A stretch of 64,000 bases of DNA from an uncultured Gemmatimonadales bacterium (GCA_963798085.1 CAWCRS010000005.1:13880-77879), one strand, 5' to 3'. Positions 11,564 through 64,000 are shown, numbered from the stretch's first letter. Translations and numbers: made by a program. The notes: a model not told the origin generated them from the letters alone.

Positions 11564-11832
11564 AATGCATCCTCCACGTGGGTCGAACCGGCCTGGGGTT
11601 CCGGCACCGCGCGCGCGCGCAGTGTCCGGCCACCTGTGTCCGTGCAGGCCTGCCGGTTCCGGCAGTCGCGGGAATCGGCAGCAATGCGCATTGCGAGGAC
11701 GCCAGGACGGTCCGAAGGTTTGCTTTCCGGAGGTGTGTGACCACGATTCTGCACGCGCCGCTGGCGCGCGTCAATCATGCGGGGACAGCAACGGCGCGAG
11801 AGCAGCGCCGGCGGGAGCGGAAACGGTCGGCT

Positions 11833-22353: not shown

Positions 22354-22771
22354 ACTCAGGTCTCCTCTCCTCCGGTGGATGAAAAAACAGCCTGAACGAA
22401 AACGAACCGGGTCGATGGCCGGAGGGGCCACCGACGAACACTGTCATTACAACGCGCGACGGTCGCAGTACGAGACACGGGATGCAATTGTGGGTGCAGC
22501 AGTCCTCCTCGAGCAAAGCTCCAGTGCCAATGGCGCCGTCAGGCCACGATTTGCGTCTGTCGCGTTCCGCGCGACGCTGCGTCGCGCAGTCCCCCTTGCG
22601 GAGCCCCGCTGCGCTTCGCCCGGCCAGCCCGGTGGCCGCCGGGCAGCGCGCCGCGCTCCGTGCTGCGGCCCGGCCGGCGCACGCCGTCGGCGGGGCGTCG
22701 ATTTGCGGCCCGATGCAGGGGCTGCGTGAGTGCTCGGGGGTTGCTGCGCGCCGCTGCGAGCGCGGCCGGTA

Positions 22772-40738: not shown

Positions 40739-40830
40739 CGTCGAAACCCTCCACCCGTTCCGTGAGTTGGCGGACCGTCGCGCGGCTCCGCGCGGCGCGC
40801 TCCATCGCGCACCGTTGACATGCTCGTGTC

Positions 40831-40846
40831 AGCATCGCCCGTGCCA
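40831..40846 (-). promoter_or_regulatory. Sigma-54 (-24/-12) promoter candidate for the PEP-CTERM gene
   Basis: The minus strand reads 'TGGCACGGGCGATGCT' against consensus TGGCACG-N4-TTGCW. GG and GC are separated by exactly 10 nt, with one mismatch in the -12 element. It lies about 95 nt upstream of the GTG start at 40738. Confidence 0.5.
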
Positions 40847-41100
40847 CCGCCCTCCGCTCCAGCGGCCGGGCCGACGACGGCATGTCGTCGCAGGCACAAG
40901 CGCTTCTCGGTGAAGTAGTTGCACGCGGTCGCCTGCTCCTGCCCTGCCCTTTCACGAAGCCCCGCGGAGCGCACGCGGCGTGTCCGGCGGTGGAACGATT
41001 CGTGGCAGGGCTGCATCGCTTTGCGTGCGAACGCCGGTGTTCGCACGCCACAGCCTCACGCCCGGCACGCACGCTGACGCAAGGGTCACCGTCCACGCTT

Positions 41101-41133
41101 GCAGAATGCAAGTCGCGGGCTCTTGCATTCTGC
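41101..41133. other. Perfect 12-bp hairpin in a relatively AT-rich spacer
   Basis: gcagaatgcaag (41101-41112) pairs with cttgcattctgc (41122-41133), loop tcgcgggct. Confidence 0.6.
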
Positions 41134-41137
41134 GAAC

Positions 41138-41173
41138 GCCGCGGGTTCTTAACACGCCGCGGGTTCTTAACAC
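41138..41173. repeat. Exact tandem duplication of an 18-mer
   Basis: 'gccgcgggttcttaacac' x2 (41138-41155, 41156-41173), followed by 'acagttaaacc', which repeats the GTT..AAC core. Confidence 0.8.
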
Positions 41174-41369
41174 ACAGTTAAACCTGCAGGGGCATGCGGG
41201 GGCGCCCGCCGCGACCCCGGCGCTGCGGCCGGCCCGTGACAACAAGTCCAGGCCGGCGCACATCCCGGGTGTGACACGCGGCCAGCCGCGCTCACGCATC
41301 GAAAACAGGGACGGGCGCGCGAGGAACAGCGGGTCGCCCCGTAATATATGGTTAGCCGCGCACGGGGTG

Positions 41370-41705
41370 TCAGTCGTGTGCCGGACGCAGCCCCGCGACG
41401 ATTCCGGGCAGCCGCGCGTGGGCGTTGTCGCACCCGGCACCGCTGCGCTCGAGGCGGATGATCAGCGTCATATGGCCCGGCCCGTCTTCCGTCATGGCGA
41501 GCGCCCACTGGCAGCCGCAGGCGAGCGGCTGCACGGGCGCCAGCTCCATACAAGCCAGCGCGCGCGCGTACAGCCTGGACTGCGCGAGATATTCCTCCCG
41601 CATATCGCCGGCACCGTGCTTTTCGGAGAGCCAGCCTGCGCGGTCGCGCAGGTTTTCCAGCTCGCGGCGCACGCGAGCCGTCGCCGCCGCCTCTGGCGCA
41701 CTCAT
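41370..41705 (-). CDS. Hypothetical protein (about 111 aa)
   Basis: ATG 41703-41705, 'MSAPEAAATARVRRELENLRDRAGWLSEKHG...'. The composition is coding-like, but no family is recognised. Confidence 0.3.
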   Translation of the reverse strand: MSAPEAAATARVRRELENLRDRAGWLSEKHGAGDMREEYLAQSRLYARALACMELAPVQPLACGCQWALAMTEDGPGHMTLIIRLERSGAGCDNAHARLPGIVAGLRPAHD

Positions 41706-42018
41706 GTGCCTGCCCCGGGCGTTACGCCCTGTTCGAACCCTCGTCGGTTCCGCGACGAGCCGGCGGCGCGATGCCGCGGGCCCGCGTCTCAGCGCCCTGA
41801 AGATGGGGAGCCCCTCTGACAGCGCCGCCGCCCTTGCAGGCGGTCCGTGCACTGCTGCGGCGTGGGCGGCAAGCGGATCGACTTGGTGGGCGCCCTTACT
41901 CGCTATACCTTGAACGAGCGGTCCTGTGGAACGTTCGCCGGCAGATCAGCGTCGCGCGCGGGCTGAGGCGCGCAGTGGTGCAACAGGAGAACTCGAACCC
42001 ACTCCCGGGGTTGCTGCG

Positions 42019-42432
42019 ATGCCCGTTTCCTACGCGGTCCATTCGGACCTTTGCCTGATTCGCACGCGGTGCAGCGGGCACACGACTCTGGCGGAAGTGC
42101 TGGCCCACTTCCAGGAGCTCAGGAGCACACCTTCGTTGCCCCAGCCTCTCGACGTGCATCTCGATCTCAGCGGATTGACGTCAAAGCCGACGCTCGACCA
42201 GATCGAGGCTGCAGCGGGCAGGACGGCATCACTCGCGCCCACACTGCGCTGGGGCGCGCTCGCCATTGTGGTAGACACGGAAAGCGCTCGGGAAACGAGC
42301 ATGCTCTACGAAGCCCTCATCCGCCACTACTTCGAGCGCATCGGGGTTTTTCGGAAGCCGGCCGACGCAGAGGCCTGGTTGGCGTCGGTGCGCGAGGAAC
42401 GAGGCCCTGACGCCGGGGATCGCCATCGCTGA
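42019..42432 (+). CDS. Hypothetical protein, possibly STAS/SpoIIAA-like fold
   Basis: ATG 42019, 'MPVSYAVHSDLCLIRTRCSGHTTLAEVLAHFQELRSTPSLPQPLDVHLDLSGLTS...VFRKPADAEAWL'. The pattern resembles small STAS-like proteins (weak, from memory). Confidence 0.4.
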   Translation: MPVSYAVHSDLCLIRTRCSGHTTLAEVLAHFQELRSTPSLPQPLDVHLDLSGLTSKPTLDQIEAAAGRTASLAPTLRWGALAIVVDTESARETSMLYEALIRHYFERIGVFRKPADAEAWLASVREERGPDAGDRHR

Positions 42433-42497
42433 GCGGCAGCGCGCCCGCGGTCGCTCTGCCGTGTCGCCCGATTCCCGGTTCGCGCAATGGTGGAGAA

Positions 42498-42570
42498 TGG
42501 AGCGTACCGGGATCGAACCGGTGACCTTCTGGTTGCAAACCAGACGCTCTCCCAGCTGAGCTAACGCCCC
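42498..42570 (-). tRNA. tRNA-Ala: tRNA-Ala (anticodon UGC)
   Basis: The minus strand reads 'GGGGCGTTAGCTCAGCTGGGAGAGCGTCTGGTTTGCAACCAGAAGGTCACCGGTTCGATCCCGGTACGCTCCA'. It has a 7-bp acceptor stem with the G3:U70 Ala identity pair, anticodon loop 'tTTGCAa', and a 'GGTTCGATCC' T-arm. CCA is not encoded. Confidence 0.92.
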
Positions 42571-46511: not shown

Positions 46512-49309
<2,798 letters not shown>

Positions 49310-49566
49310 TGCAGGCTTCCCTTCCCGACCCGAAGAAGACGTCGTGCAGCGTCGTCGCCCGTGATGTTCTGCAATACCCCGCTGCGCCCGTGAGGAGGCA
49401 GGCGCAGCCGCGCCAATTATGTTGCCGCTGCCGCGGCCCGGCCAGCCTCGGCCCGCGCAGCGGGGCGCGGCCGCGCGTCGGGGCCGGCCGGCGCTTACTT
49501 GCGCGCGCCGTCGCTGCGGTTAGCATTCCGGCAGACGAACCAGCGACACCCACAGCGGCCAGCCCA

Positions 49567-50762
49567 ATGAACCGCACCGCCCGGCGCACGCACGGCTTCA
49601 CAGAATCCGTGATCCGCGACATGACGCGCGTAGCGAACGAGGCCGGCGCCATCAATCTGGCGCAGGGCTTTCCGGATTTTCCGGCTCCCGATGTGTTGAA
49701 GGAAGCCGCGTGCGCTGCGATTCGTGCGGACGTGAATCAGTACGCCGTCACGTGGGGCACGCCGCGGCTGCGTCGTGCGCTGGCCGCGAAGTATGCGCGC
49801 GACTACGGCATGGAAGTGGATCGAGGCGAGGGAAGTCACGGTGACGTGCGGCGCGACGGAAGCCATGGCCGCGGCGCTGATGGCGGTGATCGATCCCGGT
49901 GACGAAGTCATCATCTTCGAGCCGTTCTACGAGAACTACGGGCCCGACGCCATCCTCTGTGACGCCCGCCCCGTCTGGGTGCCGCTCGGATGCATCCGGC
50001 GCTCTGGACATCGAGCGCATCCGCGCAGCCATATCGCCGCGCACGCGCGCCATTGTGATCAATTCGCCCAACAACCCCACAGGCCGCGTATTCGACCGCG
50101 CCGAGCTGGAAGCGATCGCCGAGCTGTGCCGTGCGCACGATCTGCTGGCGATCACGGACGAGATCTACGAACACATCCGTTATGATGCCGAGCACGTGCC
50201 GATGGCCACGCTGCCGGGCATGCGCGAGCGCACCATCACGATCAGCGGTTTCTCCAAGACGTTCAGCATCACCGGCTGGCGCGTGGGCACGATCGTCGCG
50301 CCGCCCGACATCACACAGGCCATCCGCAAGGTGCATGACTTCCTGACCGTGGGCTCGCCTGCGCCGCTGCAGGAAGCCTGTGCCGTCGCGCTGGAAACCA
50401 TCGGCCGGGAATACTACGACAACATGGCGCAGGAGTATCGCGAGCGGCGCGACGTGCTCTATGGCGCACTGTTAGCCGCCGGCTTCCGCTGCGCACCGCC
50501 GGGTGGCGCGTACTACATCCTGGCGGACTTCTCTGCGCTGAGCACGCGCGATGACGTGAGTTACTCGAAGTGGCTGGCGCGCGGCGGCGCGGATGGTGGC
50601 GACGCGTCACGGGGCGGCGGCGTCGCGCCGGTTCCGGGTTCGAGCTTCTTCCATGACCCGGCCATGGGCCGGCACCTGGTCCGCTTCGCTTTCTGCAAGC
50701 GCGTCGAGACCCTGCGCTCCGCCGGCTCCCGCCTCTGCGCCATCGCGCGCGATCCCTTCTGA
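49567..50762 (+). pseudogene. Class I/II PLP aminotransferase (YbdL/kynurenine-aspartate type) with at least 2 frameshifts
   Basis: ATG 49567 ('MNRTARRTHGFTESVIRDMTRVANEAGAINLAQGFPDF'). Frame changes occur at about 49815 ('gat c gag') and about 49985 ('ctc g gat'). 'NSPNNPTG' and the PLP lysine 'SGFSKTFSITGWRVG' are in ORF 49899..50762. Confidence 0.8.
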
Positions 50763-51806: not shown

Positions 51807-52469
51807 CTACAATGGCTCGATGCAGGCCGGTGTGTCGTTGGCGGCGTTGTTGACCGCAGCCGAAACCGCGTACGCGGTGAGGTCGTCGCCCGTGTACGGA
51901 TGCAGCAGGCGACGAAGCTCTTCCACGTCCGCGGCGGGATCCAGCCAGCGCTCGCGCTCTGCCGGCGTGAGCATCACGGGCATGCGATCGTGCACCGGTG
52001 CGACCACGGGGTTGGCATCGGTGGTCACAATGGCACAGCTGTAGAGCGGCTCGGCTGCCTCGCCCTGCCAGCGTTCCCAGAGGCCGGCGAAGGCGAACAG
52101 CCTGTTATCATTCAGGTGGAAGCGGAAGGGCTGGCTGCGGCCCTCCGCGCGGCGCCACTCGTAGAAACCGTCGGCCACGATGAGGCAGCGGCGCTGCTGG
52201 AAGGCCTCGCGGAAGACGCGGCGCAGCAGCAGGGTTTCGGCGCGCGCGTTGATGGTGTGCTGCACGCGCTTCGGGTCTTCCGCCCACCAGGGCACGAGAC
52301 CCCAGCGCAGGAACGAGAGCTTGCGCTCGCCCTTCGCATCCTGGCCTGCCACGGGCACGGACTGGCTGGGCGCAATGTTGTAATGCGGCTGATAGTCGGG
52401 CGGCACTTCCACGCCAAACTCATCGGCGATCTCACTGGCGTCACTGGTGAGCGTGTAGCGGCCGCACAT
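51807..52469 (-). CDS. yedK: SOS response-associated peptidase (SRAP/YedK, abasic-site processing)
   Basis: Start at 'MCGRY' (catalytic Cys2; ATG 52467-52469). 'HYNIAPSQ', 'LRWGLVPWW', 'INARAETL', 'CLIVADGFYEW', 'IVTTDANP...HDRMPV'. Confidence 0.85.
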   Translation of the reverse strand: MCGRYTLTSDASEIADEFGVEVPPDYQPHYNIAPSQSVPVAGQDAKGERKLSFLRWGLVPWWAEDPKRVQHTINARAETLLLRRVFREAFQQRRCLIVADGFYEWRRAEGRSQPFRFHLNDNRLFAFAGLWERWQGEAAEPLYSCAIVTTDANPVVAPVHDRMPVMLTPAERERWLDPAADVEELRRLLHPYTGDDLTAYAVSAAVNNAANDTPACIEPL

Positions 52470-52545
52470 GTCGTTTCCCCATGGAGCGCGAGGCACGAAG
52501 GGCGGCTGCCCCTCGTGCCTCGCCGTTAGCAGCGGGTGCGGCGAA

Positions 52546-55386
52546 TCAGCGCATCGTCGCGGACGCCGCCGGCCCGTAGTAGATGCCGTTGAAGAGCAGC
52601 TTGAACGTGCCGTGCGGCTGACCGCGGAACAGGATCTCGGGCGTGTAGAGGTACAGGTGCCCCTTGCCCACGGCGGCCTCGGCGGCAATCACACCCCCAT
52701 CGAGGTAGGTCTCTCCCAGCGCCCAGCCGCTGTGCAGCGGGTGCGGATTGTCGAACCACGCCACGGCCTTCACACCACCCAGCTCGGCTCCGGGCGGCAG
52801 CTGCAGCAGTGGGCTGCTGTCGAAGAAGAAGTCCGTGTGCTCCGCCAGTCCGGCCGCTGCCGGCTGGCTCTGATCGACGCGTGCGGTGAGCACTGACCCC
52901 GGCACGTAGAACTTCGTGCGTGGCAGACTGCGCTCCTCGCCGTTGACGACTTCCACCAGATGATCCTTGACGGGCAGGCCGAGGTGTGTTGCCAGCGATG
53001 TCGAGCTGCCAATCGTGATGACGGTACCGCCCGCATCGAGGAACGCCTTGATCTGCGGTATGGAGCGGTCCGCCGTGATGTTGCCCACCCAGCCGCGGAA
53101 CTCGGCCGGCAGCGACGTCGTGTCAGGCCCGCCGAAGCCACCGCCGCCACCGCCGCCACGACCCCCGCGTCCGCCACCGCCGGCGGCCGGAATCATGCCG
53201 TCGACGAAGACGAGCACGTCGTATTTGCTGCGCAGGTTCCCGGCATCGATGGTCTGGGGATAGATCACCTCGAAGGGGAACTCGAACTGCTCGAACTCGA
53301 AGCGCGTCCAGCCCGATGGCATGGAGCCGCCGTAGCGATCGAGCAGGCCGATGCGGACGGGTTGCAGCTTGAGTGCGCTGCCCGCTTTGGTGCCGGTGGC
53401 TTCGAAGACCAGGCCTTTCTGTTTCGCCAGATCATCGAGCAGCGGGCGTACACCGCCGGCCGCAGGAATGTAGAACGTGCCTGCGGGCCAGGTGTGGCCG
53501 TTGGCCGTGAAGGGGGCCTGCAGCCAGTACACATCCTTCTTCGCCTTCAGCAGCCGGTTCACGGCGACAAACGCGTCGTTCACCTCATGGCTGAGCAGGA
53601 ATCCCGCGTTGCCGGAACCGGCTACACGCCCGGGCGGCGGCGCCACATCGGGGCCGGGAATCATCTCGACGGGTGCGTCGAAGCCTTCCACGATGCGATC
53701 GAACTGTACGCCCATGGTGAAGGCCAGCGTATAGCCCGCATTGTCGTAGGGCGGAATGGGCGGACCGCCGGGATACGCGAGATCGTTCGGGTGATCCTGC
53801 GGCTCGAACATGTCGATGACGTGCGCGCGGAACGGCTGCGCCGCCTTCACCACATAGGAGCCGGCGGGATACGTCTTGCCGTTCACCTGGAAATCGCGCG
53901 TTGCGCGACCCACCTGTACGCCACCACGCGTGAGCGCCTGCACGAATTTCGTGGCCGTCAGGAAATCCGGCTGGCTGGACGGAAGGATGTAGCCGCGTGC
54001 ATCGCGCAGCGAAGGATCGCGCATCATGCGTTCGAAGTCGGCGCGCGTGCCGCCGCCGCCTCGCCCGCCGCGGCCCCCACCGCCACCACCACCCACCTCA
54101 TCAGCATCGGCGGCGGCGCCACCGCCCCGCCTGCCCGGACCGGCGAGCTTCTCGGTCGCGGCCGCAATGCGGCTCGGCGTATCCGTCCAGTGGTCCCTGT
54201 TGCCGTTGTCGATGGCGCGCTTCGCCATCAGGTACATGTTGTAGAGGAACTCTTCCCTGCGCCGTGAAACGATGTCGAGCACGGCGCGATCCGCGGTGAT
54301 CGAGTAGTCGACGGACTGCCGGAAGTGCCACGGTTGGGGTTCGATCGGGAGCGGCAGATCGCTCTTGGAAAGCAGACGGTCGGGAATGAACGGAATCTGC
54401 TCGGGCGTGGGATTACCGATGGTCTCGGTGAGCAGGCCGATCATGTTGTGGAAGTAGGCCATGGTGCGCAGGCCGCCGTTCCACCAGGTCGAGTAGTTGG
54501 AGCCGGACCGCATGGTAACACCGGGTTTGTGCTCGGTGACGAAGCGGTCGTGCATGGAGCCGCCCACGATCTCGAGACCCGTCTGGATGGCGGAATCGAA
54601 GTAGTAGTTGGGCGGATCGCGGAAGGGCGGCGAGAACATGACCGCGCCCGCCGGTCCCGTCTGGTGGTGATTGTAGACGACGACCGGGTACCACGTGCGG
54701 TACATCACCTGATTGTCGTTCTGCGTTTCCGGCAGATTCGCCATGTAGAAGTCGCGGTTGTCGTCGTGGCCCGCGTACTTCTCGTACAGCCGCGGAATTC
54801 CGTTGGTCGAGCGGCGCTGCGCATCCTGATTGCGCATGTACCAGTTGGAGACCAGCTCCATGCCATCGGGATTCACCTGCACGCAGAGGATGACGAGGTC
54901 ATTGAGGAAGCGCAGGGTCTCCGGGTCGTCCATGCTGACCAGCTGATAGACGATCTCCATCAGCTGCTGCGCGCCCAGCACCTCGGTTGCGTGCAGGCCG
55001 CCATCGATCCAGACCACGGCCTTGGTGTCGTGCGCGAGCTGCCGGGCCTGGTCCTCGGTGAGGCCGTCGGCCATGGCAAGGCGTCGCTCGTTCGCCTTGA
55101 GGCGATCGAGATTGCGGATGTTCTCGGGCGACGAAATGATGGCCATGAGTTGCGGCCGGCCCTCGGCAGAGTGGCCGATCGTGTCGAGGACCATCCGATC
55201 GGATTCCTTGGCCAGCTTCTGCCAGTACGCGGTCAGATCCGTGTAGTTGGGCAGGACGTAGTCGGCCCCGATCTCGTGGCCGAACTGCTGCTGCGGCGAA
55301 GTGACGCGCGTCTGCGCGCTCGCGGCAGCCGTCGCGAGCAACGTCGTACACGTTGCGAGCAGGACTGCTCGAGCTCGTCCTCGCAT
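52546..55386 (-). CDS. Large secreted M14-family zinc carboxypeptidase
   Basis: 946 aa, intact. Signal peptide 'LLATAAASAQ', 'HSAEGRP' (HxxE zinc motif) and 'NPDG'. Two Gly/Arg-rich inserts: 'GGGGGGGRGGRGGGG' and 'GGGGRGGRGGGGGGGFGG'. Confidence 0.8.
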   Translation of the reverse strand: MRGRARAVLLATCTTLLATAAASAQTRVTSPQQQFGHEIGADYVLPNYTDLTAYWQKLAKESDRMVLDTIGHSAEGRPQLMAIISSPENIRNLDRLKANERRLAMADGLTEDQARQLAHDTKAVVWIDGGLHATEVLGAQQLMEIVYQLVSMDDPETLRFLNDLVILCVQVNPDGMELVSNWYMRNQDAQRRSTNGIPRLYEKYAGHDDNRDFYMANLPETQNDNQVMYRTWYPVVVYNHHQTGPAGAVMFSPPFRDPPNYYFDSAIQTGLEIVGGSMHDRFVTEHKPGVTMRSGSNYSTWWNGGLRTMAYFHNMIGLLTETIGNPTPEQIPFIPDRLLSKSDLPLPIEPQPWHFRQSVDYSITADRAVLDIVSRRREEFLYNMYLMAKRAIDNGNRDHWTDTPSRIAAATEKLAGPGRRGGGAAADADEVGGGGGGGRGGRGGGGTRADFERMMRDPSLRDARGYILPSSQPDFLTATKFVQALTRGGVQVGRATRDFQVNGKTYPAGSYVVKAAQPFRAHVIDMFEPQDHPNDLAYPGGPPIPPYDNAGYTLAFTMGVQFDRIVEGFDAPVEMIPGPDVAPPPGRVAGSGNAGFLLSHEVNDAFVAVNRLLKAKKDVYWLQAPFTANGHTWPAGTFYIPAAGGVRPLLDDLAKQKGLVFEATGTKAGSALKLQPVRIGLLDRYGGSMPSGWTRFEFEQFEFPFEVIYPQTIDAGNLRSKYDVLVFVDGMIPAAGGGGRGGRGGGGGGGFGGPDTTSLPAEFRGWVGNITADRSIPQIKAFLDAGGTVITIGSSTSLATHLGLPVKDHLVEVVNGEERSLPRTKFYVPGSVLTARVDQSQPAAAGLAEHTDFFFDSSPLLQLPPGAELGGVKAVAWFDNPHPLHSGWALGETYLDGGVIAAEAAVGKGHLYLYTPEILFRGQPHGTFKLLFNGIYYGPAASATMR

Positions 55387-55996: not shown

Positions 55997-56968
55997 TCAG
56001 CCGATGGCCGCCGCCTGCTGCGAGCGCTGGAAGACGCGCAGCGAATCGAGGCCTGCAGCCTTGGCTTCGTAGAGCGCGGCATCAGCGGCTGCCAGCAGAT
56101 CATCGGGCGCGCGCATACCGGGCCGGAAGCTGGCCAGGCCACAGGAAAGTGTGACGGCGCCAGTCGGCGGCTGCGATTCGCGGAGTCGGTTCTTGACGCG
56201 CTCGACGAAGACCAGCGCGCCCGCGATTTCCGACGATGACAGCACCGCCAGGAATTCCTCGCCGCCCCAGCGCCCGGAGATGTTCATGGCGCGCGTCTGT
56301 GTCGCCAGCGCCTGACCCACCGCGCGCAGCGCCTTGTCACCCGCCCCGTGACCGTGCCGGTCGTTGTACGCCTTGAAGCGATCGATATCGAAGAAAACCA
56401 CCACCAGCGGCCTGCCTCGCCGGGCGGCCGCGAACTCGCGCTCCAGTATGAGCCGCACGTAGCGGCGGTTGGGCAGACTGGTCAGCTCGTCGGTCAGCGC
56501 CAGCTCTTCGGCGTGCATGCGTTCCGAGTGCAGCCGGTCGGAGAGTATGCCAATGCCGAGCGAGATGAGCACATACGAAATAATGACGGCGACGAGCAGC
56601 GACACATTCGGCACGCGGTAGCCGGACATGGCCAGTCCGAGCTGCACGGACACCATCAGCACCATGCCCGCGGCCAGGGTCATCGTGACGCCTCGCCAGC
56701 CGCGGAAATAAGCCAGCAGGAATGCGGGCACGAGCAGCAGCAGCCACACGAGCAGCTCGTACTCCTCGGTGGCCTCGGGCATGACGACGCTGGCAATGAC
56801 AGGGACGAGCAGAGCAACGGCGCTCAGGACGAACGCACGGCGAGGCATCGTGGGACGACCGAGATACCAGACCGGCCTGCGGCCGGCCGGCTCCGCGTGG
56901 AGCGGGCCAGCAGCGGGCAGCGGGTCCGCCGAAATAGACTCCATCACTGAATTTCCGGTATCAAGCAT
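55997..56968 (-). CDS. Membrane-bound diguanylate cyclase (GGDEF domain)
   Basis: TM-rich N-terminus and a C-terminal 'DELTSLPNRR...FFDIDRFKAYNDRHGHGAGD...RWGGEEFLAVL' with a GGEEF active site. The start is uncertain (MLDTGN taken, ATG 56966-56968). Confidence 0.8.
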   Translation of the reverse strand: MLDTGNSVMESISADPLPAAGPLHAEPAGRRPVWYLGRPTMPRRAFVLSAVALLVPVIASVVMPEATEEYELLVWLLLLVPAFLLAYFRGWRGVTMTLAAGMVLMVSVQLGLAMSGYRVPNVSLLVAVIISYVLISLGIGILSDRLHSERMHAEELALTDELTSLPNRRYVRLILEREFAAARRGRPLVVVFFDIDRFKAYNDRHGHGAGDKALRAVGQALATQTRAMNISGRWGGEEFLAVLSSSEIAGALVFVERVKNRLRESQPPTGAVTLSCGLASFRPGMRAPDDLLAAADAALYEAKAAGLDSLRVFQRSQQAAAIG

Positions 56969-57177
56969 ATCCGCGGCGCCGGGAGCACTCGACAGGACGC
57001 GCAAGTCGTCTGCGTGGCCGTTGCGCCTCGCTGGCGGCGTGTCTCTCGTCCCGGCGGCTACAGTCGCCTCTGGAAGGAAGTATCGCCCGGATCGAAGCCC
57101 CGGTTGAACGCGGGCGGCTGCCGTTCCGGCGGACTGCCCGCGACCGTACATTGCCGGGCCATGGGGGAAGGGCGCGA

Positions 57178-58374
57178 ATGAACGGCACGATCGTCTGCCT
57201 GGCGAGCTACGAGAAGGGCGCGGACCTGCTCCTCGCCTGCGCCGATCTGGGCATGCCGCCCGTACTGGTCACGGTCGAGAAGCTGAAGGATGCGGAGTGG
57301 CCGAGAGACCGTCTCGGCGGGTTCTACTGGCTGGCCGACTTTCACACCCGCGATCACGTGATCCATGCCGTGAGCTGGCTGGCGCGCAGCCAGCGCATTG
57401 CACGCATCGTCGCGCTCGACGAGTTCGACCTCGAGCTGGCCGCCGCGCTGCGCGAGCATCTGCGCGTGCCCGGCATGGGCGACACCGCGGTGCGCTATTT
57501 CCGCGACAAACTGGCCATGCGCCAGCGCGCCGCGGCCGCCGGCATGCGCGTGCCCCGCTTCACGGCGGTATTCAACGACGAGGATGTGCGAGCATTCGCC
57601 GGGCGAGTGGCGCCCCCGTGGCTGCTGAAGCCGCGGACCGAGGCAGCGGCCATCGGCATCCGCCGCATCACGGACGAGACCGCGCTGTGGGCGGAGCTGG
57701 AGCAGCTGGGCGACCGCCGCTCCTGGTTCCTGCTCGAGGAATACGTGGGCGGCGCGGTCTACCACGTCGATTCCATCGTGGCGCGCCGCAGCGTGACGTT
57801 CGCCATGGCCAGCCGCTACTCGACGCCGCCCTTCGATGTGGCCCACGGCGGCGGCATCTTCGCCAGCACCACGGTGACGCACGGCTCGGCGGACGAGAAG
57901 GCACTGCTCGAGCACAACACGAAGCTGGTCTCTGCCTTCGGCATCGTGGGCGGAGCGCTGCACACGGAATTCATCCGCAGCGATGCGGATGGCGGCTTTC
58001 TTTTTCTGGAAACAGCGGCGCGCGTGGGCGGAGCGCACATTGTCGAGATGGTCGAGGCGGCGACGGGCGTGAACCTGTGGCGCGAATGGGCGGCCGTGGA
58101 GGTAGCCAGCGCGCGCGGCCAGCCCTACACGCCGCCGCTCCCGCACACGGACCACGCGGGCCTGGTCCTCTCGCTGGCGCGCCAGGAGTGGCCGGACACA
58201 TCCGCGTACGATGATCCGGAAATCGTGTGGCGGATTCGACGCCGGCATCACGCCGGCCTGATCGTGTCGTCGCCGGACCCGGAGCGCGTAGGCGTGCTGC
58301 TCGAGGCCTACCGCGCGCGTTTCGCCGAGGATTTCCTGGCCACCATGCCTGCGCCCGACAAGCCCACCGCGTGA
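57178..58374 (+). CDS. ATP-grasp domain enzyme (amino acid/carboxylate-amine ligase type)
   Basis: ATG 57178 ('MNGTIVCLASYEKG'). 'RDKLAMRQRAAAAGMRVPRF', 'PWLLKPRTEAAAIGIRRI', 'FLLEEYVGG.VYHVDS' and 'LHTEFIR...FLFLETAARVGGAHI' follow the ATP-grasp layout. Confidence 0.75.
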   Translation: MNGTIVCLASYEKGADLLLACADLGMPPVLVTVEKLKDAEWPRDRLGGFYWLADFHTRDHVIHAVSWLARSQRIARIVALDEFDLELAAALREHLRVPGMGDTAVRYFRDKLAMRQRAAAAGMRVPRFTAVFNDEDVRAFAGRVAPPWLLKPRTEAAAIGIRRITDETALWAELEQLGDRRSWFLLEEYVGGAVYHVDSIVARRSVTFAMASRYSTPPFDVAHGGGIFASTTVTHGSADEKALLEHNTKLVSAFGIVGGALHTEFIRSDADGGFLFLETAARVGGAHIVEMVEAATGVNLWREWAAVEVASARGQPYTPPLPHTDHAGLVLSLARQEWPDTSAYDDPEIVWRIRRRHHAGLIVSSPDPERVGVLLEAYRARFAEDFLATMPAPDKPTA

Positions 58375-59219
58375 ATCCGCGTACCAGCCACGCACTCACC
58401 GCACGCGCGTGGGTTCCCTACGCCACGGCGGAGGACGGCCCGCTTGCCCATCTCGCGGACCGCGTGTACGTGTTGCGTGATCTGGCCAGCCCACAGCTGG
58501 GCAATCGGCGCGATATCGTGGTGCTGCTGCCGGCCGGCCATGACGCCGGCGGGCGGACGTACCCGGTCGTGTACATGCAGGATGGGCAGAACCTCTTCGA
58601 CCCGGCCACCAGTTTCGCGAGCCCATGGCGAGCGGGCGAAGCGCTGGATGCGCTGCACGAGGAGGGGCTGGACGCGATCATCGTGGGCGTGCCCAACACG
58701 GGCGCGCAGCGTCTCGACGAATACAGTCCATTCCGCGATGCGCGCGTGGGCGGCGGCCGCGGCGAGGCGTACGTGCGCTTCCTCAGCGACACGGTGAAGC
58801 CGGCGGTCGACGCAGCGTTCCCGACGCGCCGCGGACGTGAGGACACGTTCGTCGCCGGCTCTTCGATGGGCGGACTCATCAGCCTGTACGCAATCTGCGC
58901 GCACGGCGAGGTGTTCGGCGGCGCGGGAGCGCTCAGTCCGGCGCTCTGGTTCGCGCGCCGCGCGTTCTATCCGTGGCTGCGCAAACAGTCTGTCAGGGGC
59001 CGCGTGTCACTGCGCGCCGGTACGGGCGAAGGACCCCTGCTGCTGGCGGATGTGGCGAGGCTGCGGGACATGCTGCTGGAGCGCGGGCTGCGGCTGGGCC
59101 GCGATCTCGATTGCCGCTTCGACAGCGGCGGGCGGCATGACGAATCCTCGTGGAGCCGCCAGCTGCCCGGCGTGCTGCGCTTTCTGCTCAACGCGAACGG
59201 CGCGCCGCCTTCCGGCTGA
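58371..59219 (+). CDS. Esterase-family alpha/beta hydrolase (putative esterase/esterase D type)
   Basis: GTG 58371 overlaps the ATP-grasp stop (GTGA). 'PVVYMQDGQNLFD', nucleophile elbow 'AGSSMGG', and a late 'GGRHDE'. Confidence 0.7.
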   Translation: MNPRTSHALTARAWVPYATAEDGPLAHLADRVYVLRDLASPQLGNRRDIVVLLPAGHDAGGRTYPVVYMQDGQNLFDPATSFASPWRAGEALDALHEEGLDAIIVGVPNTGAQRLDEYSPFRDARVGGGRGEAYVRFLSDTVKPAVDAAFPTRRGREDTFVAGSSMGGLISLYAICAHGEVFGGAGALSPALWFARRAFYPWLRKQSVRGRVSLRAGTGEGPLLLADVARLRDMLLERGLRLGRDLDCRFDSGGRHDESSWSRQLPGVLRFLLNANGAPPSG

Positions 59220-59982
59220 CACTGCGCCGGTTGTCGGCGGCACAGGCATCGGCAAACGCTTCGAACAGCGCAGTCGACGACGCGCCACTCAACGCCTCCG
59301 GGTGCCATTGTACCGCCAGCGCGAAGCCATCCGCGCGTGACTCGACCGCTTCAATGAGGCCATCGGGCGCGTGCGCCGTTGCGTCCAGCCCGGCTGCCAG
59401 CGTGTGCACGCCCTGGTGGTGCATGCTGTTCACGCGAACCGCGCCGTCACCGAGCGCGCCGGCCAGACGCGAGCCGGACGCCACGTCGACGTCGTGCGCC
59501 AGGTAGTCGCGGGTAAAGCCCTGCATCGGGAAGTAGTCGTGCTTGATGGAGCCGGGATACTGCGCAGTCGTGTCCTGCCAGAGCGTGCCGCCCAGCGCCA
59601 CATTGAGCACGTGCAGCCCGCGGCACACGCCCAGCAGCGGCTTGCCCTCGGCCGCGGCCCAGCGCGCCAGTCGCAGCTCCACACGATCCCTCGCCGCATC
59701 AATGTTGCCGCACAGCGTGCCCTTTTCCTGACCGTACTCCGCGGGATTCACGTCCACGCCCCCGGCGAGGAAAACACCATCCAGGCGATCGAAGATGGCG
59801 CGTATGATCAGCTCATCTTCCGCCAGCAGCGGCACCATCACCGGCACCAGTCCGGATGCGGCCAGCGTCGCGAAGTAGCGGTGACTCATCACCCAGGAAT
59901 GCGGGATGCCTTCCGGAATCCCGTCCATGGCCTGCAGCGTCTGGCCGGGAACTCCCACGAGCAATCGCGTACTCTTTGCCAT
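59188..59982 (-). CDS. Peptidase C26 / class-I glutamine amidotransferase-like gamma-glutamyl hydrolase (PuuD-like)
   Basis: 'FLAGGVDVNP', nucleophile 'LLGVCRGLHVLNVALGG', 'VNSMHHQGV' and 'AVQWHPE'. Its 3' end overlaps the convergent esterase gene by 32 nt. Confidence 0.8.
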   Translation of the reverse strand: MAKSTRLLVGVPGQTLQAMDGIPEGIPHSWVMSHRYFATLAASGLVPVMVPLLAEDELIIRAIFDRLDGVFLAGGVDVNPAEYGQEKGTLCGNIDAARDRVELRLARWAAAEGKPLLGVCRGLHVLNVALGGTLWQDTTAQYPGSIKHDYFPMQGFTRDYLAHDVDVASGSRLAGALGDGAVRVNSMHHQGVHTLAAGLDATAHAPDGLIEAVESRADGFALAVQWHPEALSGASSTALFEAFADACAADNRRSVSRKAARRSR

Positions 59983-60047
59983 GAATTCTTACTCTGTTGC
60001 GTACGCGGCCCGGGCGCGCTCTTCCTGCGCGAGTCGTGGTCCGCGCT

Positions 60048-61145
60048 TCATTCCTGGGTTTCCTGCACGAGCTGGTCCACCACGTCCTTCAGGTCGCCGG
60101 TGCGGTGGAATGTGGCCAGCTGGCGATCCGCACTGGAGCCCTCCTTCAGGATGCGATGGACGTACTCGACCTCGCTTCGGGTTCCCAGCTCGTCCACCAC
60201 GTCGGCAATGAACCACTCGACCAGCTCGAGGATCAGCTGGCGCGCGGGCAGCTCCTGCTGTTTGCCGAAGTCGATGAGCTGGCCGTCCAGGCCGTAACGC
60301 ACGGCGCGCCACTTGTTCTCCTCGAGCAGGTCGGAGGAGTACACCCGGAACGTCGTGTTATCGCGCCGCATCTTCCACAGCTTGGCAATGATGGCCTGCA
60401 GGATGGCGGCCAGACAGACGGCTTCGTCCACGCGCGTGCAGATGTCGAGCACGCGGAACTCGAGCGTCGGATAGTGATGATGCGGCCGCACGTCCCACCA
60501 GATCTTCGAGCCGTCCGGTATGGAGCGCGTGCGCACCAGGGTATCCTCCAGGTACTTGAAGTCGCCCCATGACTGGAACGGCCGCGGGATGCCGGTGCGC
60601 GGGAAGTTGCGGAAAATCACGCTGCGGTAACTCTTGAGCCCGGTCTCGCGGCCGATCCAGAAGGGCGAGCTGGAAGCCAGGCAGAGCAGGTGCGGCAGGA
60701 AGTAGCGCGCCACGTTCATGGCATCGATCATGAACTCGCGATCCTCGATGCCGATGTGGATGTGCGTGCCGAAGATCAGCAGCTGCTGCGCCAGCAGCTG
60801 CATGTCCTGCTTCACGCCCATGTAGCGTTCCAGCGGTGTGATTTCCTGTGTGAGCCAGGAGGAGAAGGGGTGCGTGCCGGCGGCGGCCATGCGCAGATTC
60901 TTGCGCGCCGCCAGGCCGTGGACCATGCGGCGCAGGCGACGCAGCTCCTGACCGGCTTCCGCCGGCGTCCGGCACACCGTGGTGCCCACTTCGACGATCG
61001 ACTGATGCAGCTCCGGCTTCACCTCGCGCAGAATCACATCATCTTCCTGCAGTATCTCCGTGATATAGGAACGCAGCTCCCGCGTCTCCGGGTCGATGAT
61101 CTGATACTCTTCCTCGATGCCAATGGTGAGTGAAGGCGGCTCCAT
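60048..61145 (-). CDS. Carboxylate-amine ligase, GCS2/YbdK family
   Basis: 365 aa, intact. 'LTIGIEEEYQIIDPETREL', 'PELHQSIVEVGT', 'AAAGTHPF', 'FGTHIHIGI', 'SSSPFW.G..TG..SYR' and 'WWDVRPH...PTLEFRV.D' are the typical YbdK pattern. Confidence 0.85.
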   Translation of the reverse strand: MEPPSLTIGIEEEYQIIDPETRELRSYITEILQEDDVILREVKPELHQSIVEVGTTVCRTPAEAGQELRRLRRMVHGLAARKNLRMAAAGTHPFSSWLTQEITPLERYMGVKQDMQLLAQQLLIFGTHIHIGIEDREFMIDAMNVARYFLPHLLCLASSSPFWIGRETGLKSYRSVIFRNFPRTGIPRPFQSWGDFKYLEDTLVRTRSIPDGSKIWWDVRPHHHYPTLEFRVLDICTRVDEAVCLAAILQAIIAKLWKMRRDNTTFRVYSSDLLEENKWRAVRYGLDGQLIDFGKQQELPARQLILELVEWFIADVVDELGTRSEVEYVHRILKEGSSADRQLATFHRTGDLKDVVDQLVQETQE

Positions 61146-61152
61146 ACCCCTC

Positions 61153-62513
61153 CTAACGAGGCTCTACCACAAAGGTGGCGACGCTGGAACCGCCACCTGC
61201 AGTAACATTGACCAGCGATTCCGTCGAGAGCCGGCTCAGACAACCATCCATGTAGGCGCCGTAATAGATGAACGGCGCAGTGTCCAGGATGCGCTCGGGA
61301 AACTGGACGCGGCCATCGACCAGAACGGGAAAGGCCTCGAGCGGAATGTGCACGCGTTCCTGCACCACGTGGGGCGAGGTCAGGGCCACGCGCAGGGCCG
61401 CTTCCCAGGCGGCATGCGTCCGTCTCCCAGCCCAGCACGATGCCCTTGCCGCCATACTCGTCGTTAGGCTTGAGCACCAGCTTCTCGCGCTGCTGCGCGA
61501 TGAAGGGCAGCAGGTCCACTTCCCGGCCCTGGTACTGCGTGACGCGCTCGGCCACGCTGCGCGTCCAGGGGATGTGCGCCTCGATGCCGGCGCGCTCTCC
61601 GGGCGTGAACAGCGCCGCGTTGCGCTCGTCGCTGAGCACGGCCAGGCTGGCCTTCTTGTGCAGCACCTTGCAGCGGAACGGATTGACCATGCAGACGGCG
61701 CGCTCGCGCACGGCGCGCACCACCGGGTGATCCATGCCGCCGCGATCGATCAGTTCGCTGATCAGCACGCGCTTGTAGATCAGGTCGACGGGCGATGTCG
61801 GCCGCGTATCAGCCGTCCCCTGCCGGTACTCCGACTTCGCGCGGGTCGGCAATGACGCAGTCCAGGCCTTGCGAGCGCAGGTACTCGGCGGTGATCACGA
61901 ACTCGCTGTAGGTCGGCACGTCGTGCCAGTCGAGGATGGCGATGCGCGGCGCCGCGCGCCGCCCGGACCACTGGTGCCAGGCATCCAGCAGCGCGTGCAT
62001 GACGTTCTGCCGCGACGGCTGGGGCCGCACCTCGTAGCGGCGCAGGAACTCGCCCATCACGGGAAGCCCGAGAAACACCTCCGCGAGCACGTCGTTGTAC
62101 GCAGGCGGCCGCCGGCGTCTCCGCATTGTACTCGGTGAAGCGCAGGCCACCGCGGTCGGGCACGAAGAACGCATCCAGCCGCGACACCGGACTGGGGTCG
62201 CGGAAGCCGGGGTCGGTCGCGCGAGCAGTTCGATCTCCCAGTCGTCGAGGCCGAACTGCGCCAGCACACTCTCATCCTCGATGGCCGCTTCGTAGGCTTT
62301 GCGGAACGCGCCCATGAGCACGCTGCAGCGGCTCTGCAGGAAGGCATACTGGGCCGCGGTCAGGAAGCGCGGCCGCAGCACGCTGCAGAGGGGGCGGTTG
62401 CCGAAGAAGAGGCCGCGGTACGCGAGCTGCGAATCCAGCCTCGCCTGTGTTTCTTCCGCCAGCTCGTCGGTCAGCAGGGCGTGCCAGTGCTCGATGGCGG
62501 CCTGGAGCGCCAT
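61153..62513 (-). pseudogene. Circularly permuted ATP-grasp (type 2)/glutathionylspermidine-synthase-like ligase with at least 5 frameshifts
   Basis: Pieces lie in ORFs 61809..62513, 61780..62187, 61034..61852 and 61153..61455. Reassembled, they read '...SRLDAFFVPDRGGLRFTEYNAETPAA', 'AYNDVLAEVF', 'VDLIYKRVLISELI', '[22 protein letters not shown]', '[19 protein letters not shown]' and 'HVVQERV...DTAPFIY.G'. The family call is from memory of the CP_ATPgrasp_2 pattern. The start overlaps the upstream stop by 1 nt. Confidence 0.65.
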
Positions 62514-63454
62514 CAGCTGCGCGTCCGCGTGGCCGTGAACAGCGTGGACCAGTCCAGGCGGTCACGCTGCGGCCTGGCCGCCTTCGCCAGGCGGATCGCC
62601 ATGTCCGCCATGTGCTCGACCGCCCAGTCGAAGTAATGCGATGTCAGGGAATACACGTCCATGTCGGGTGCGGGGTTCATGAAATCGATGGCGTAGGGAA
62701 TGCCGTCACGAATGGCCCACTCGATCGAGTTCATGTCGTAGCCCAGTGCGCGCACCAGCTTGAGCGAGTCCGCCACCACGCGCGCGCCCGTTTCCGGCGT
62801 CAGGTACTCGTGGTCCATGATGTACTTGCGTTCGCGCGGATCGTAGTGGATGGGCATGATCTCTTCCTGGCCCAGACAGATGCAGCGTACGAACTGATCC
62901 CACTCGATGTACTCCTGCACCACCATGGTGCGCAGGCCGGAGCGGTCGTAGTTGTCGATCAGCTCACCCATGGTGCGGCAGATGAAGACGTCCTTCCAGC
63001 CGCCGCCGTGCGCATCCTTCAGCACGCAGGGCATGCCGACGTAGTCCACGATGGCGTGCCAGTCGAGCGGATACACAAGGTTGCGCAGGCTCTCCGTGTG
63101 CACGATGCCGGGCACGTAGTCCTTGTTGGGCAGTGCCACCGTGCGCGGGTGCGCCACACCCAGCTTCCGCGCCAGACTGGCGCCGAAGAACTTGTCGTCC
63201 GCCGACCACATGAACGGATTGTTCACCACGGTGACGCCCTGCACCACCGCGTGCTTCAGGTAGCTGCGGTAGTACGGGACTTCATGCGAGATGCGATCGA
63301 TGATGACGGACCACGGCACCGGCTCATCCATGGCGGTGCCGCCCAGCTTGACGTACTCGACCACCACGCCCGCATCACGCCGATGCACTTCTTCGATGAA
63401 GGCCGGCGGGAACGACCACTCGCGGCCGACGAAGAGTCCCACCTTCAAGGCCAT
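62513..63454 (-). CDS. ATP-grasp domain protein (RimK/GshB-like size)
   Basis: Start at MALKVGLF (ATG 63452-63454), 313 aa. 'DDKFFGASLARKLGVAHPRTV', 'PCVLKDAHGGGWKDV', 'MVVQEYIEW' and 'NSIEWAIRDGIPYAIDFMNPAPD' follow the ATP-grasp layout. Confidence 0.7.
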   Translation of the reverse strand: MALKVGLFVGREWSFPPAFIEEVHRRDAGVVVEYVKLGGTAMDEPVPWSVIIDRISHEVPYYRSYLKHAVVQGVTVVNNPFMWSADDKFFGASLARKLGVAHPRTVALPNKDYVPGIVHTESLRNLVYPLDWHAIVDYVGMPCVLKDAHGGGWKDVFICRTMGELIDNYDRSGLRTMVVQEYIEWDQFVRCICLGQEEIMPIHYDPRERKYIMDHEYLTPETGARVVADSLKLVRALGYDMNSIEWAIRDGIPYAIDFMNPAPDMDVYSLTSHYFDWAVEHMADMAIRLAKAARPQRDRLDWSTLFTATRTRS

Positions 63455-63468
63455 GGTTTGTCCCCCGT

Positions 63469-64000
63469 TCAATCGTGTCCTCCGATGTAGAGCGGCAGCA
63501 TCTGCCGCCACCACGGCCAGTCGTGCGCCCAGCCGTCCCAGAGTCGGAAGGCGTGCCACACTCCTTTTTCCCACAGCACGCGCGAGATGTGTTCGTTGTC
63601 CGCGCGGTTGGGATCGTCACGCCCGATCGCGATGATGATGTCCGTGGCGCGCAGTGCCGCCAGCCGCGCCGGGTCCTGCAGGTGCATCAGGTAGTGCGAA
63701 GGATCGTGCGCATACACTCGCTCGTCCTCGTAACCGCCTGTCAGGCGCTTGATGTCGTAGAGCCCGGCCATGGCCAGCACGCGGTCTACCATGCCCGGAT
63801 GCCGCAACGCCAGGTTGAGCGCATGGTAGGCGCCGAAGCTCGTGCCGGTGGTGATCAGGAACGGATCCTGGTTGCGCTGCTGCGTGAACGGAATCACCTC
63901 GTGCACAATGTACCGTTCGTACTCGTCGTGCCGCAGCGCCGCATCCGAGGGATGCTTGTCGCGCGCGTACCAGCTCTCTGCATCCACGCTGTCCACGCAG
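63469..64000 (-). CDS. Esterase-family alpha/beta hydrolase, 5' end outside the window
   Basis: 'GTSFGAYHAL' nucleophile elbow, 'IIIAIGRDD' and 'WAHDWPWW'. The reading frame is still open at the window edge. Confidence 0.65.
   Translation of the reverse strand, partial: CVDSVDAESWYARDKHPSDAALRHDEYERYIVHEVIPFTQQRNQDPFLITTGTSFGAYHALNLALRHPGMVDRVLAMAGLYDIKRLTGGYEDERVYAHDPSHYLMHLQDPARLAALRATDIIIAIGRDDPNRADNEHISRVLWEKGVWHAFRLWDGWAHDWPWWRQMLPLYIGGHD

Follow-up and report, generated by a model that had tools for sequence, protein, structure and literature searches.

Which compound is built by a compact set of stand-alone ligases and hydrolases is the question raised by a locus of an uncultured Gemmatimonadales bacterium. 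The locus lies at the end of a stretch of 64,000 nt (GCA_963798085.1 CAWCRS010000005.1:13880-77879), from here called the window, on which all coordinates given below are counted. It comprises seven genes, designated A to G, which an earlier reading of the sequence alone had taken together as one amidoligase cluster. Our analysis points to a cassette with the core G-F-E-D that works independently of ribosomes and of nonribosomal peptide synthetases (NRPS), and that makes and recycles a small glutathione-like peptide or peptide-amine conjugate. We give this interpretation a probability of about 0.5.

Gene neighbourhoods of this kind have been considered before. In their comparative genomics work of 2009, Iyer, Abhiman, Burroughs and Aravind reportedly recognized clusters of ATP-grasp enzymes, COOH-NH2 (GCS2-like) ligases and peptidases, to which unknown peptides or tags were ascribed. 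The CP_ATPgrasp families in Pfam presumably stem from that study. The best-known permuted-ATP-grasp system is said there to be paired with alpha-E and transglutaminase domains; unlike in that system, both domains are absent from the cassette described here. Full-text literature searches returned no paper on this gene combination.

The four-gene core and its accessories

The core genes follow each other on the minus strand. The first is G (63469 to beyond 64000), encoding a PF00756 esterase of the alpha/beta hydrolase type whose N-terminus lies beyond the window end. It is followed after 14 nt by F (62513-63454), encoding a 313-aa protein that is assigned to the classical ATP-grasp ligases of the Ddl/RimK/LysX-ArgX structural type. 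The stop codon of F overlaps the start of E in the sequence TGATG. Gene E (61153-62513) encodes a predicted circularly permuted ATP-grasp ligase (CP_ATPgrasp_2 / GspS pre-ATP-grasp type) and is frame-broken here. Its obligatory partner D (60048-61145), separated by 7 nt, codes for a YbdK/GCS2-family carboxylate-amine ligase of 365 aa. Another 65 nt downstream and on the same strand lies C (59188-59982), a lineage-specific accessory gene for a 264-aa amidase of the Peptidase C26 / class-I glutamine-amidotransferase type. Two further accessory genes are located on the plus strand, A (57178-58374) for an L-amino-acid-ligase-like ATP-grasp protein of 398 aa and B (58371-59219) for a PF00756 esterase of 282 aa. 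The stop codon of A overlaps the start of B in a GTGA sequence, which couples the two translationally, while B and C are convergent and overlap by 32 nt at their 3′ ends. The open reading frame (ORF) map placed all seven genes where the sequence-only reading had located them and, together with the junction sequences, bore out the coupling, the three gaps and the F-E overlap that it had described.

Conservation of this arrangement was analyzed in one genome per species. The scan yielded at least 546 E loci, the best 80 of which were examined for gene order. The window proteins were mapped onto those loci by tblastn, and the denominators given here refer to testable loci. The best 80 loci belong to Gemmatimonadota, Rhodothermales and other Bacteroidota, Chloroflexota (Ktedonobacteria, Thermomicrobiales, Anaerolineae and Chloroflexia), Armatimonadota, Terriglobia (Acidobacteriota) and Ca. 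Sysuimicrobiota. Gene D directly follows E in all 74 loci, F stands before E in 59 of 62, and 47 of 55 have G upstream in the same orientation, with G divergent in four more. In Ca. Sysuimicrobiota, neither G nor F accompanies the E-D pair. Chance is far from explaining the arrangement, given that members of at least six phyla keep the core colinear. This co-conservation sustains the earlier view of a functional unit for the four genes G-F-E-D; according to the locus counts, A, B and C are optional accessories and do not extend it to a unit of seven. Compared across phyla, the homologues are 66-83% (F), 60-77% (E) and 68-91% (D) identical to the window proteins, an unusually high level among enzymes that are still uncharacterised.

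The recurrent accessory genes each encode a hydrolase or a further ligase, and flanking genes outside the cassette set are not conserved. Gene C follows D in 29 of 61 loci, including 27/27 in Gemmatimonadota and 2/2 in Rhodothermales; it does so in 0/21 Chloroflexota and 0/3 Bacteroidota loci. Thus the C26 enzyme, previously counted as part of the set, belongs to it in Gemmatimonadota and Rhodothermales and not in Chloroflexota. In about eleven Chloroflexota loci, most of them labelled Chloroflexia, a 677-aa S9/PD40 peptidase occupies the position of C. Of 36 loci, 20 have an orthologue of B no more than 8 kb from the core, its side and strand varying, and 7 of 36 have A within this distance. 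Gene A is colinear after D in the Thermomicrobiales loci L054/L086, where the order is G-F-E-D-A-B, and it also follows D in L041, L069, L076 and L077. The presence of G-F-E-D-A-B on one strand in a Thermomicrobiales genome argues that A and B belong to the same system. Pairwise comparisons of B with G and of A with F revealed no similarity, which rules out a recent duplication of an esterase/ATP-grasp pair. Hence, the 'duplicated esterase/ATP-grasp pairing' on two arms that had been noted earlier did not hold, the second arm being optional as well.

The family assignment of D was obtained from several profiles. The protein matched Pfam GCS2 (PF04107) with 186 bits (cutoff 21), the structure of YbdK (1R8G) with an E-value of 2e-46, and the NCBIfam equivalog NF010039 (PRK13515), named 'carboxylate-amine ligase', with 513 bits at a cutoff of 371. 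Its second-best NCBIfam models carry glutamate-cysteine ligase names. The glutamate-cysteine ligase equivalogs NF010043, NF010042, NF010044, NF010045 and TIGR02048 all remained below cutoff, the best being NF010043 with 357 bits against 409 and the others scoring lower.

For gene E, the reading frame was restored by removal of inserted bases (see below). The repaired protein reached 31.6 bits against a cutoff of 32 for Pfam CP_ATPgrasp_2 (PF14403) and 27.3 bits against 29.3 for GSP_synth (PF03738); a precomputed PF14403 match is present on many intact homologues. The profile of the E family matched the putative GspS 3N6X (E-value 1e-5), and its block SRLDAFF...EYNAETPAA, a pre-ATP-grasp signature, aligns to YgiC/YjfC, the overall sequence match to YgiC being weak (E-value 0.14). 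The glutathione synthetase families GSH_synth_ATP and GSH_synthase of Pfam gave no sequence match with E. Judged from these profiles, E is classified as a divergent CP_ATPgrasp_2/GspS-type protein, borderline for CP_ATPgrasp_2. Its family comprises more than 7,000 sequence clusters at an E-value of 1e-5 or lower, all of about 450 aa. Longer homologues (P0060, P0207, P0219, P0229 and P0232) contain no extra domain and hence no fusion partner that could serve as a functional hint.

Structural comparison extended this assignment. A structural model of the E family was built on the homologue P0001, which is 78% identical to repaired E, with a predicted local distance difference test (pLDDT) score of 71. 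In a full-length fold search, human, soybean, potato and yeast (homo)glutathione synthetases ranked first, with E-values down to 1e-9 and template-modelling (TM) scores of 0.53-0.55, followed by the ligase Cp1B of the E-64 pathway (9CJN) and then by YgiC/YjfC. What glutathione synthetases, Cp1B and YgiC/YjfC have in common is the activation of the carboxylate at the C-terminus of a short peptide, gamma-glutamyl or other, to which an amine is then joined. A passage in PMC12568646, citing Pederick et al. 2023, describes YgiC and YjfC as peptidylpolyamine synthetases that transfer spermidine onto peptide C-termini.

By sequence, F matched its families weakly, with 16.9 bits for Pfam RimK (cutoff 21) and 33.8 bits for TIGR00768 (cutoff 143). 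Its AlphaFold2 model (pLDDT 68) was compared to the PDB using Foldseek, and the top matches were Ddl, RimK and ArgX/LysX, with E-values of about 1e-10, TM scores of 0.55-0.61 and a probability of 1.00. As modelled, F is a classical three-domain ATP-grasp ligase that is not assignable to a subfamily. The part of G inside the window scored 40.2 bits on Pfam Esterase (PF00756; cutoff 22) and shows the nucleophile motif GTSFG (GxSxG). Full-length G orthologues have about 223-243 aa, and the one at locus L003 scored 39.3 bits on the same model.

Among the accessory proteins, C matched Pfam Peptidase_C26 (PF07722) with 201 bits (cutoff 20.5), and its translation shows the motifs GVCRG with the nucleophilic cysteine and WHPE with the His-Glu pair. 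Its best named model was that of the gamma-glutamyl-GABA hydrolase PuuD (NF008471), with 111.8 bits below the cutoff of 266. Protein B scored 104.5 bits on Pfam Esterase and contains a GSSMG motif. Protein A remained below 27 bits, the threshold, for Pfam ATP-grasp (18.6), ATP-grasp_4 (18.5) and ATPgrasp_N (17.3); in NCBIfam it matched PRK02186 (62.7 bits, ATP-grasp part only) and PRK07206 (50.8 bits), and it resembles ATP-grasp domains of the L-amino-acid-ligase type. Of the family calls made earlier, those for D, C, B and G are supported by Pfam scores, while A and F are sub-threshold by sequence, the fold of F being seen in the model.

No NRPS was found with the cassette and no conserved small precursor or carrier ORF in or near it in 85 loci, in agreement with what had been stated for the locus. 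A precursor or carrier peptide was rejected as a candidate. The gaps in the window measure at most 65 nt, and larger F-E gaps elsewhere are unrelated inserts or ORF-free, GC-rich spacers; apparent 'conserved' small ORFs turned out to be shadows of the G N-terminus or of the S9 peptidase. In two Bacteroidota genomes, a 121-aa DUF559 endonuclease-like gene is located between F and E (L020 7469-7834, L023 3373-3738; PF04480, 114 bits for the insert in L020), and L069 and L070 carry other, unrelated inserts at this position. ORF-free F-E spacers of 400-570 nt with 81-82% GC occur in some Gemmatimonadota (L018 1217-1612, L051 7603-8001, L074 1961-2528).

Further peculiarities were observed in individual genomes. 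The contig of one Chloroflexia metagenome-assembled genome (MAG) contains a tandem E-D repeat (L043 4634-10740), and two contigs of one Gemmatimonadales MAG carry a full cassette each (L007 and L009); these cases could be real duplications, strain mixtures or assembly artefacts. In L087 (13765-19195), and in this one genome only, the cassette is followed by a gene for a 502-aa protein and glutamate-synthase-like genes (Glu_synthase, GXGXG), which might relate to glutamate supply. PADLOC defence models matched none of the seven proteins. A plasmid-borne mobile cassette was discarded, as the plasmid relatives all have less than 33% identity.

Frame breaks in gene E

The sequence-only reading had called the interval 61153-62513 a permuted ligase gene and had already suggested resequencing it. 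As sequenced, this gene is not intact. Searches by tblastn with intact homologues of 450 aa spread it over three reading frames, and segmentation by the phase of GC at third codon positions (GC3) agrees that the frame changes within the region. When its DNA was aligned to that of six relatives, every length difference was an insertion in the window, amounting to 8 nt at 7 sites (62216-62217, 62103, ~61832, ~61816, 61809, ~61790 and 61416). Removing these 8 nt yields a clean ORF of 450 codons, which is exactly the family length. Of 173 columns without variation among 20 intact homologues, repaired E retains 170; as a control, intact members left out singly missed 0-6 of the invariant columns. 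The insertions at 62216-62217 and at 62103 offset each other, and an ORF from 61809 to 62513 reads through. Between these two insertions the SRLDAFF...EYNAETPAA block is out of frame and is restored only by editing. With this signature block replaced by nonsense, E as sequenced cannot be active.

Are these breaks errors in the sequence or signs of decay? Other genes in the window are frame-split as well. The aconitase gene (46515-49736, minus strand) is scattered over at least five ORF fragments that differ in frame, matching the segments 13-312, 352-426 and 428-463 of Pfam Aconitase and 9-47 and 45-129 of Aconitase_C, which suggests clustered indel errors in the sequence. A DPP-IV-type peptidase (9175-11770, minus strand) has its DPPIV_N domain in the ORF 10091-11770 and its Peptidase_S9 domain in the ORF 9175-10164, two halves in different frames that overlap by 74 nt and are explained by one frameshift. 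A class I/II aminotransferase gene (49736-50759, plus strand) is split at ~49.9 kb, with the profile positions 66-119 and 119-313 in separate frames.

Taken as evidence of sequence error, the frame splits in the aconitase, the DPP-IV-like peptidase and the aminotransferase make this explanation likelier than decay of E. It is favoured further because there are only insertions and no sign of relaxed selection in E, and because a housekeeping aconitase is shattered in what looks like a free-living type of genome with 67% GC. We therefore regard sequence error as most likely, by our estimate from the sequence at about 3:1 over decay, and the cassette as probably intact in the organism.

The opposite explanation, in which the cassette is real and decaying here, with E a true pseudogene and the pathway inactive in this genome, appears rather unlikely. 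It would account for the strong clustering of the insertions, with seven lesion sites in the 1.36 kb of E and none in the ~9.4 kb of the eight other genes checked around it (A, B, C, D, F, G, the GGDEF gene and the M14 gene, all intact), and for the single unbroken match that E forms in all 85 other loci. Nevertheless, all eight changes are insertions, although gene decay in bacteria is deletion-biased. The edit moreover restores exactly 450 codons with a loss of invariant residues within the range of intact members, and the frame splits in aconitase and two other genes of the window point to sequence quality. Programmed frameshifting was ruled out, since the breaks occur at seven sites, the contexts that were read contain no slippery heptamers and the gene is unbroken in all 85 relatives.

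In four MAGs (L017, L022, L041 and L043), F appears in two or three tblastn pieces, and in L041 so does G; hence, frame-breaking errors in the cassette are not unique to the window. A TonB-dependent receptor ORF of 863 aa (19388-22443, minus strand) matches only positions 14-324 of the 436 positions of the barrel model and shares ~480 nt with a 317-aa ORF in a different frame, which may be a further frameshift.

Possible product and competing explanations

In the pathway that we propose, D would couple an amino compound to a carboxylate at the expense of ATP, the gamma-carboxyl group of glutamate being the likeliest candidate. E would then phosphorylate the C-terminal carboxylate of the D product and add an amine, which may be an amino acid or a polyamine, a step modelled on glutathione synthetase, glutathionylspermidine synthetase and YgiC/YjfC. 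Further residues may be added or pre-assembled by F and, in loci that have it, by A. The esterases G and B would trim, recycle or degrade the product, and the same trimming or recycling role may be taken by the C26 amidase in Gemmatimonadota and Rhodothermales and by the S9 peptidase in some Chloroflexota.

The two-step logic of glutathione synthesis had been invoked before for the ligases of this locus, and it gains support from the E-family fold and from the invariance of the E-D pair. As the predicted fold of E is closest to eukaryotic glutathione synthetase and to YgiC/YjfC, the pair probably works like GshA followed by GshB. The likeness to GshA-GshB lies in the GCS2/YbdK ligase placed directly beside a permuted ATP-grasp ligase in an invariant pair. 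Unlike in glutathione synthesis, D fails the glutamate-cysteine ligase cutoffs and F and G are linked almost as tightly, and unlike for a eukaryote-type glutathione synthetase, the resemblance of E lies at the level of the fold only (TM 0.53-0.55). With the glutathionylspermidine synthetase family (YgiC/YjfC 7UK6-7UKA, 3N6X), E shares the SRLD...EYNAETP signature; in contrast to glutathionylspermidine synthetase it has no amidase domain, it stands in another neighbourhood and no polyamine genes are linked. A further parallel is the NRPS-independent assembly of E-64 in fungi, by the ATP-grasp enzyme Cp1B and an amide-bond synthetase, with an epoxysuccinate warhead (PMC12568646). Both systems use successive stand-alone ATP-dependent amide-forming enzymes, and Cp1B is among the structural neighbours of E; a GCS2 enzyme and an esterase, however, are found only in the cassette.

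Several points weigh against this interpretation. D does not reach the curated cutoff of any glutamate-cysteine ligase equivalog, and even for YbdK there is, to our knowledge, no agreed physiological substrate. Model quality was only moderate (pLDDT 68 and 71), with TM scores of ~0.55, and the fold match of E was obtained with a 78%-identical homologue and not with the broken E of the window. The PF00756 esterase has no explained role in an amide-forming pathway, and the absence of C26 from Chloroflexota means that gamma-glutamyl hydrolysis is not universal to the system. In addition, Gemmatimonadetes, Bacteroidetes and Acidobacteria have been predicted to make bacillithiol (PMC6282198), which leaves these phyla without an obvious need of another thiol and weakens the idea of a main thiol. 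A thiol product is attractive and unproven. In its specific form, that G-F-E-D makes an undescribed glutathione-like metabolite (a gamma-glutamyl tri- or tetrapeptide, thiol or peptide-amine conjugate) in lineages from soil and hot springs that span at least six phyla, the proposal is tentative, and the odds are against it.

It is unlikely that D and E simply constitute the plain glutathione (or gamma-Glu-Cys-X) pathway of these lineages, with D as a GCS2-type GshA analogue, E as a eukaryote-type GshB analogue and F and G as peripheral genes. The invariant E-D pair, standing alone in Ca. Sysuimicrobiota, would fit such a pathway, as would the proximity of the E-family fold to human, plant and yeast glutathione synthetase and the glutamate-cysteine ligase names of the second-best models of D. 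Yet D reaches 357 bits against 409, or worse, on every glutamate-cysteine ligase equivalog and falls instead into another equivalog, whose name is generic. The lack of a sequence match between E and the glutathione synthetase families, with CP_ATPgrasp_2/GspS-like profiles matching instead, speaks against it as well, and so does the co-conservation of F and G, which are not required for glutathione synthesis and are linked almost as tightly as D.

A catabolic or assimilatory gamma-glutamylation resembling the Puu pathway, in which D tags an amine or peptide, later enzymes process it and hydrolases release glutamate, is improbable. Like Puu (PuuA/PuuD) and EgtA/EgtC, the cassette can pair a glutamate-activating ligase with a glutamine-amidotransferase-type amidase, PuuD being the best named relative of C; the recurrent accessory genes are hydrolases, and the window is rich in peptidases (M14, the DPP-IV-like peptidase and an amidohydrolase). 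For catabolism, however, spending ATP on three or four ligases would be pointless, and the flank survey of the loci found no oxidase, dehydrogenase or transporter conserved with the core. Unlike in Puu and Egt, D is of the GCS2 type and not of the glutamine-synthetase type, no oxidative or methylating enzymes are linked, and C scores below the PuuD cutoff and occurs in some lineages only, with Chloroflexota lacking it. With D and C both below these cutoffs, none of the proteins reaches an equivalog of a characterised pathway, the condition that had been named earlier as one that would refute the cluster.

Equally improbable is a C-terminal modification of proteins or carrier peptides, as by RimK on S6, by LysX/ArgX on LysW or in peptide-spermidine ligation, with the hydrolases as erasers: RimK and ArgX/LysX are indeed structural neighbours of F, the E neighbours YgiC/YjfC ligate spermidine to peptide C-termini, and peptide-tagging roles were reportedly predicted for such neighbourhoods by Iyer et al. 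in 2009, but the 85 loci contain no conserved small ORF or carrier gene, the intergenic gaps in the window are short, and a GCS2 partner is typical of small-molecule chemistry.

Surroundings of the cassette and significance

The gene next to A encodes a GGDEF protein (55997-57151, minus strand), and the ORF map confirmed its divergent position, which had been reported earlier. As a part of the system it was rejected, since the adjacency is limited to the closest relatives and reflects local synteny only. In these relatives (L001, L003, L008, L009 and L013), the order M14-GGDEF-cassette is kept, and their synteny includes an acyl-CoA oxidase gene that is absent from the window. Beyond the GGDEF gene, a gene for an SOS-response-associated peptidase (SRAP) stands beside one for a 946-aa M14 carboxypeptidase with long Gly/Arg-rich linkers (51807-55386, minus strand). 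The interval 40776-42570 contains ~1.6 kb of many short GC3-phase segments without a convincing ORF. This ORF-poor stretch is adjoined by a tRNA-Ala(TGC) gene (42498-42570, minus strand), the sole Rfam/ARAGORN match in the window. Scans for promoters and terminators found no more of them than in shuffled sequence.

For the window itself, a caution follows from the clustered insertions, most likely errors, which break genes including the key cassette gene E. With only four genes and neither an NRPS nor a precursor peptide, the cassette is small enough for a direct test by heterologous expression. Its enzymology is familiar; what is unusual is the breadth and strength of its conservation. If a distinct glutathione-like compound is indeed its product, the cassette would provide the first physiological context for the YbdK/GCS2 family and for a large branch of permuted ATP-grasp proteins, of whose more than 7,000 clusters none is characterised. 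Such a compound would represent a new small-molecule cofactor or protectant in abundant, poorly cultured soil phyla, and the 60-80% identity of the enzymes across phyla would then imply an important and strongly constrained cellular role.

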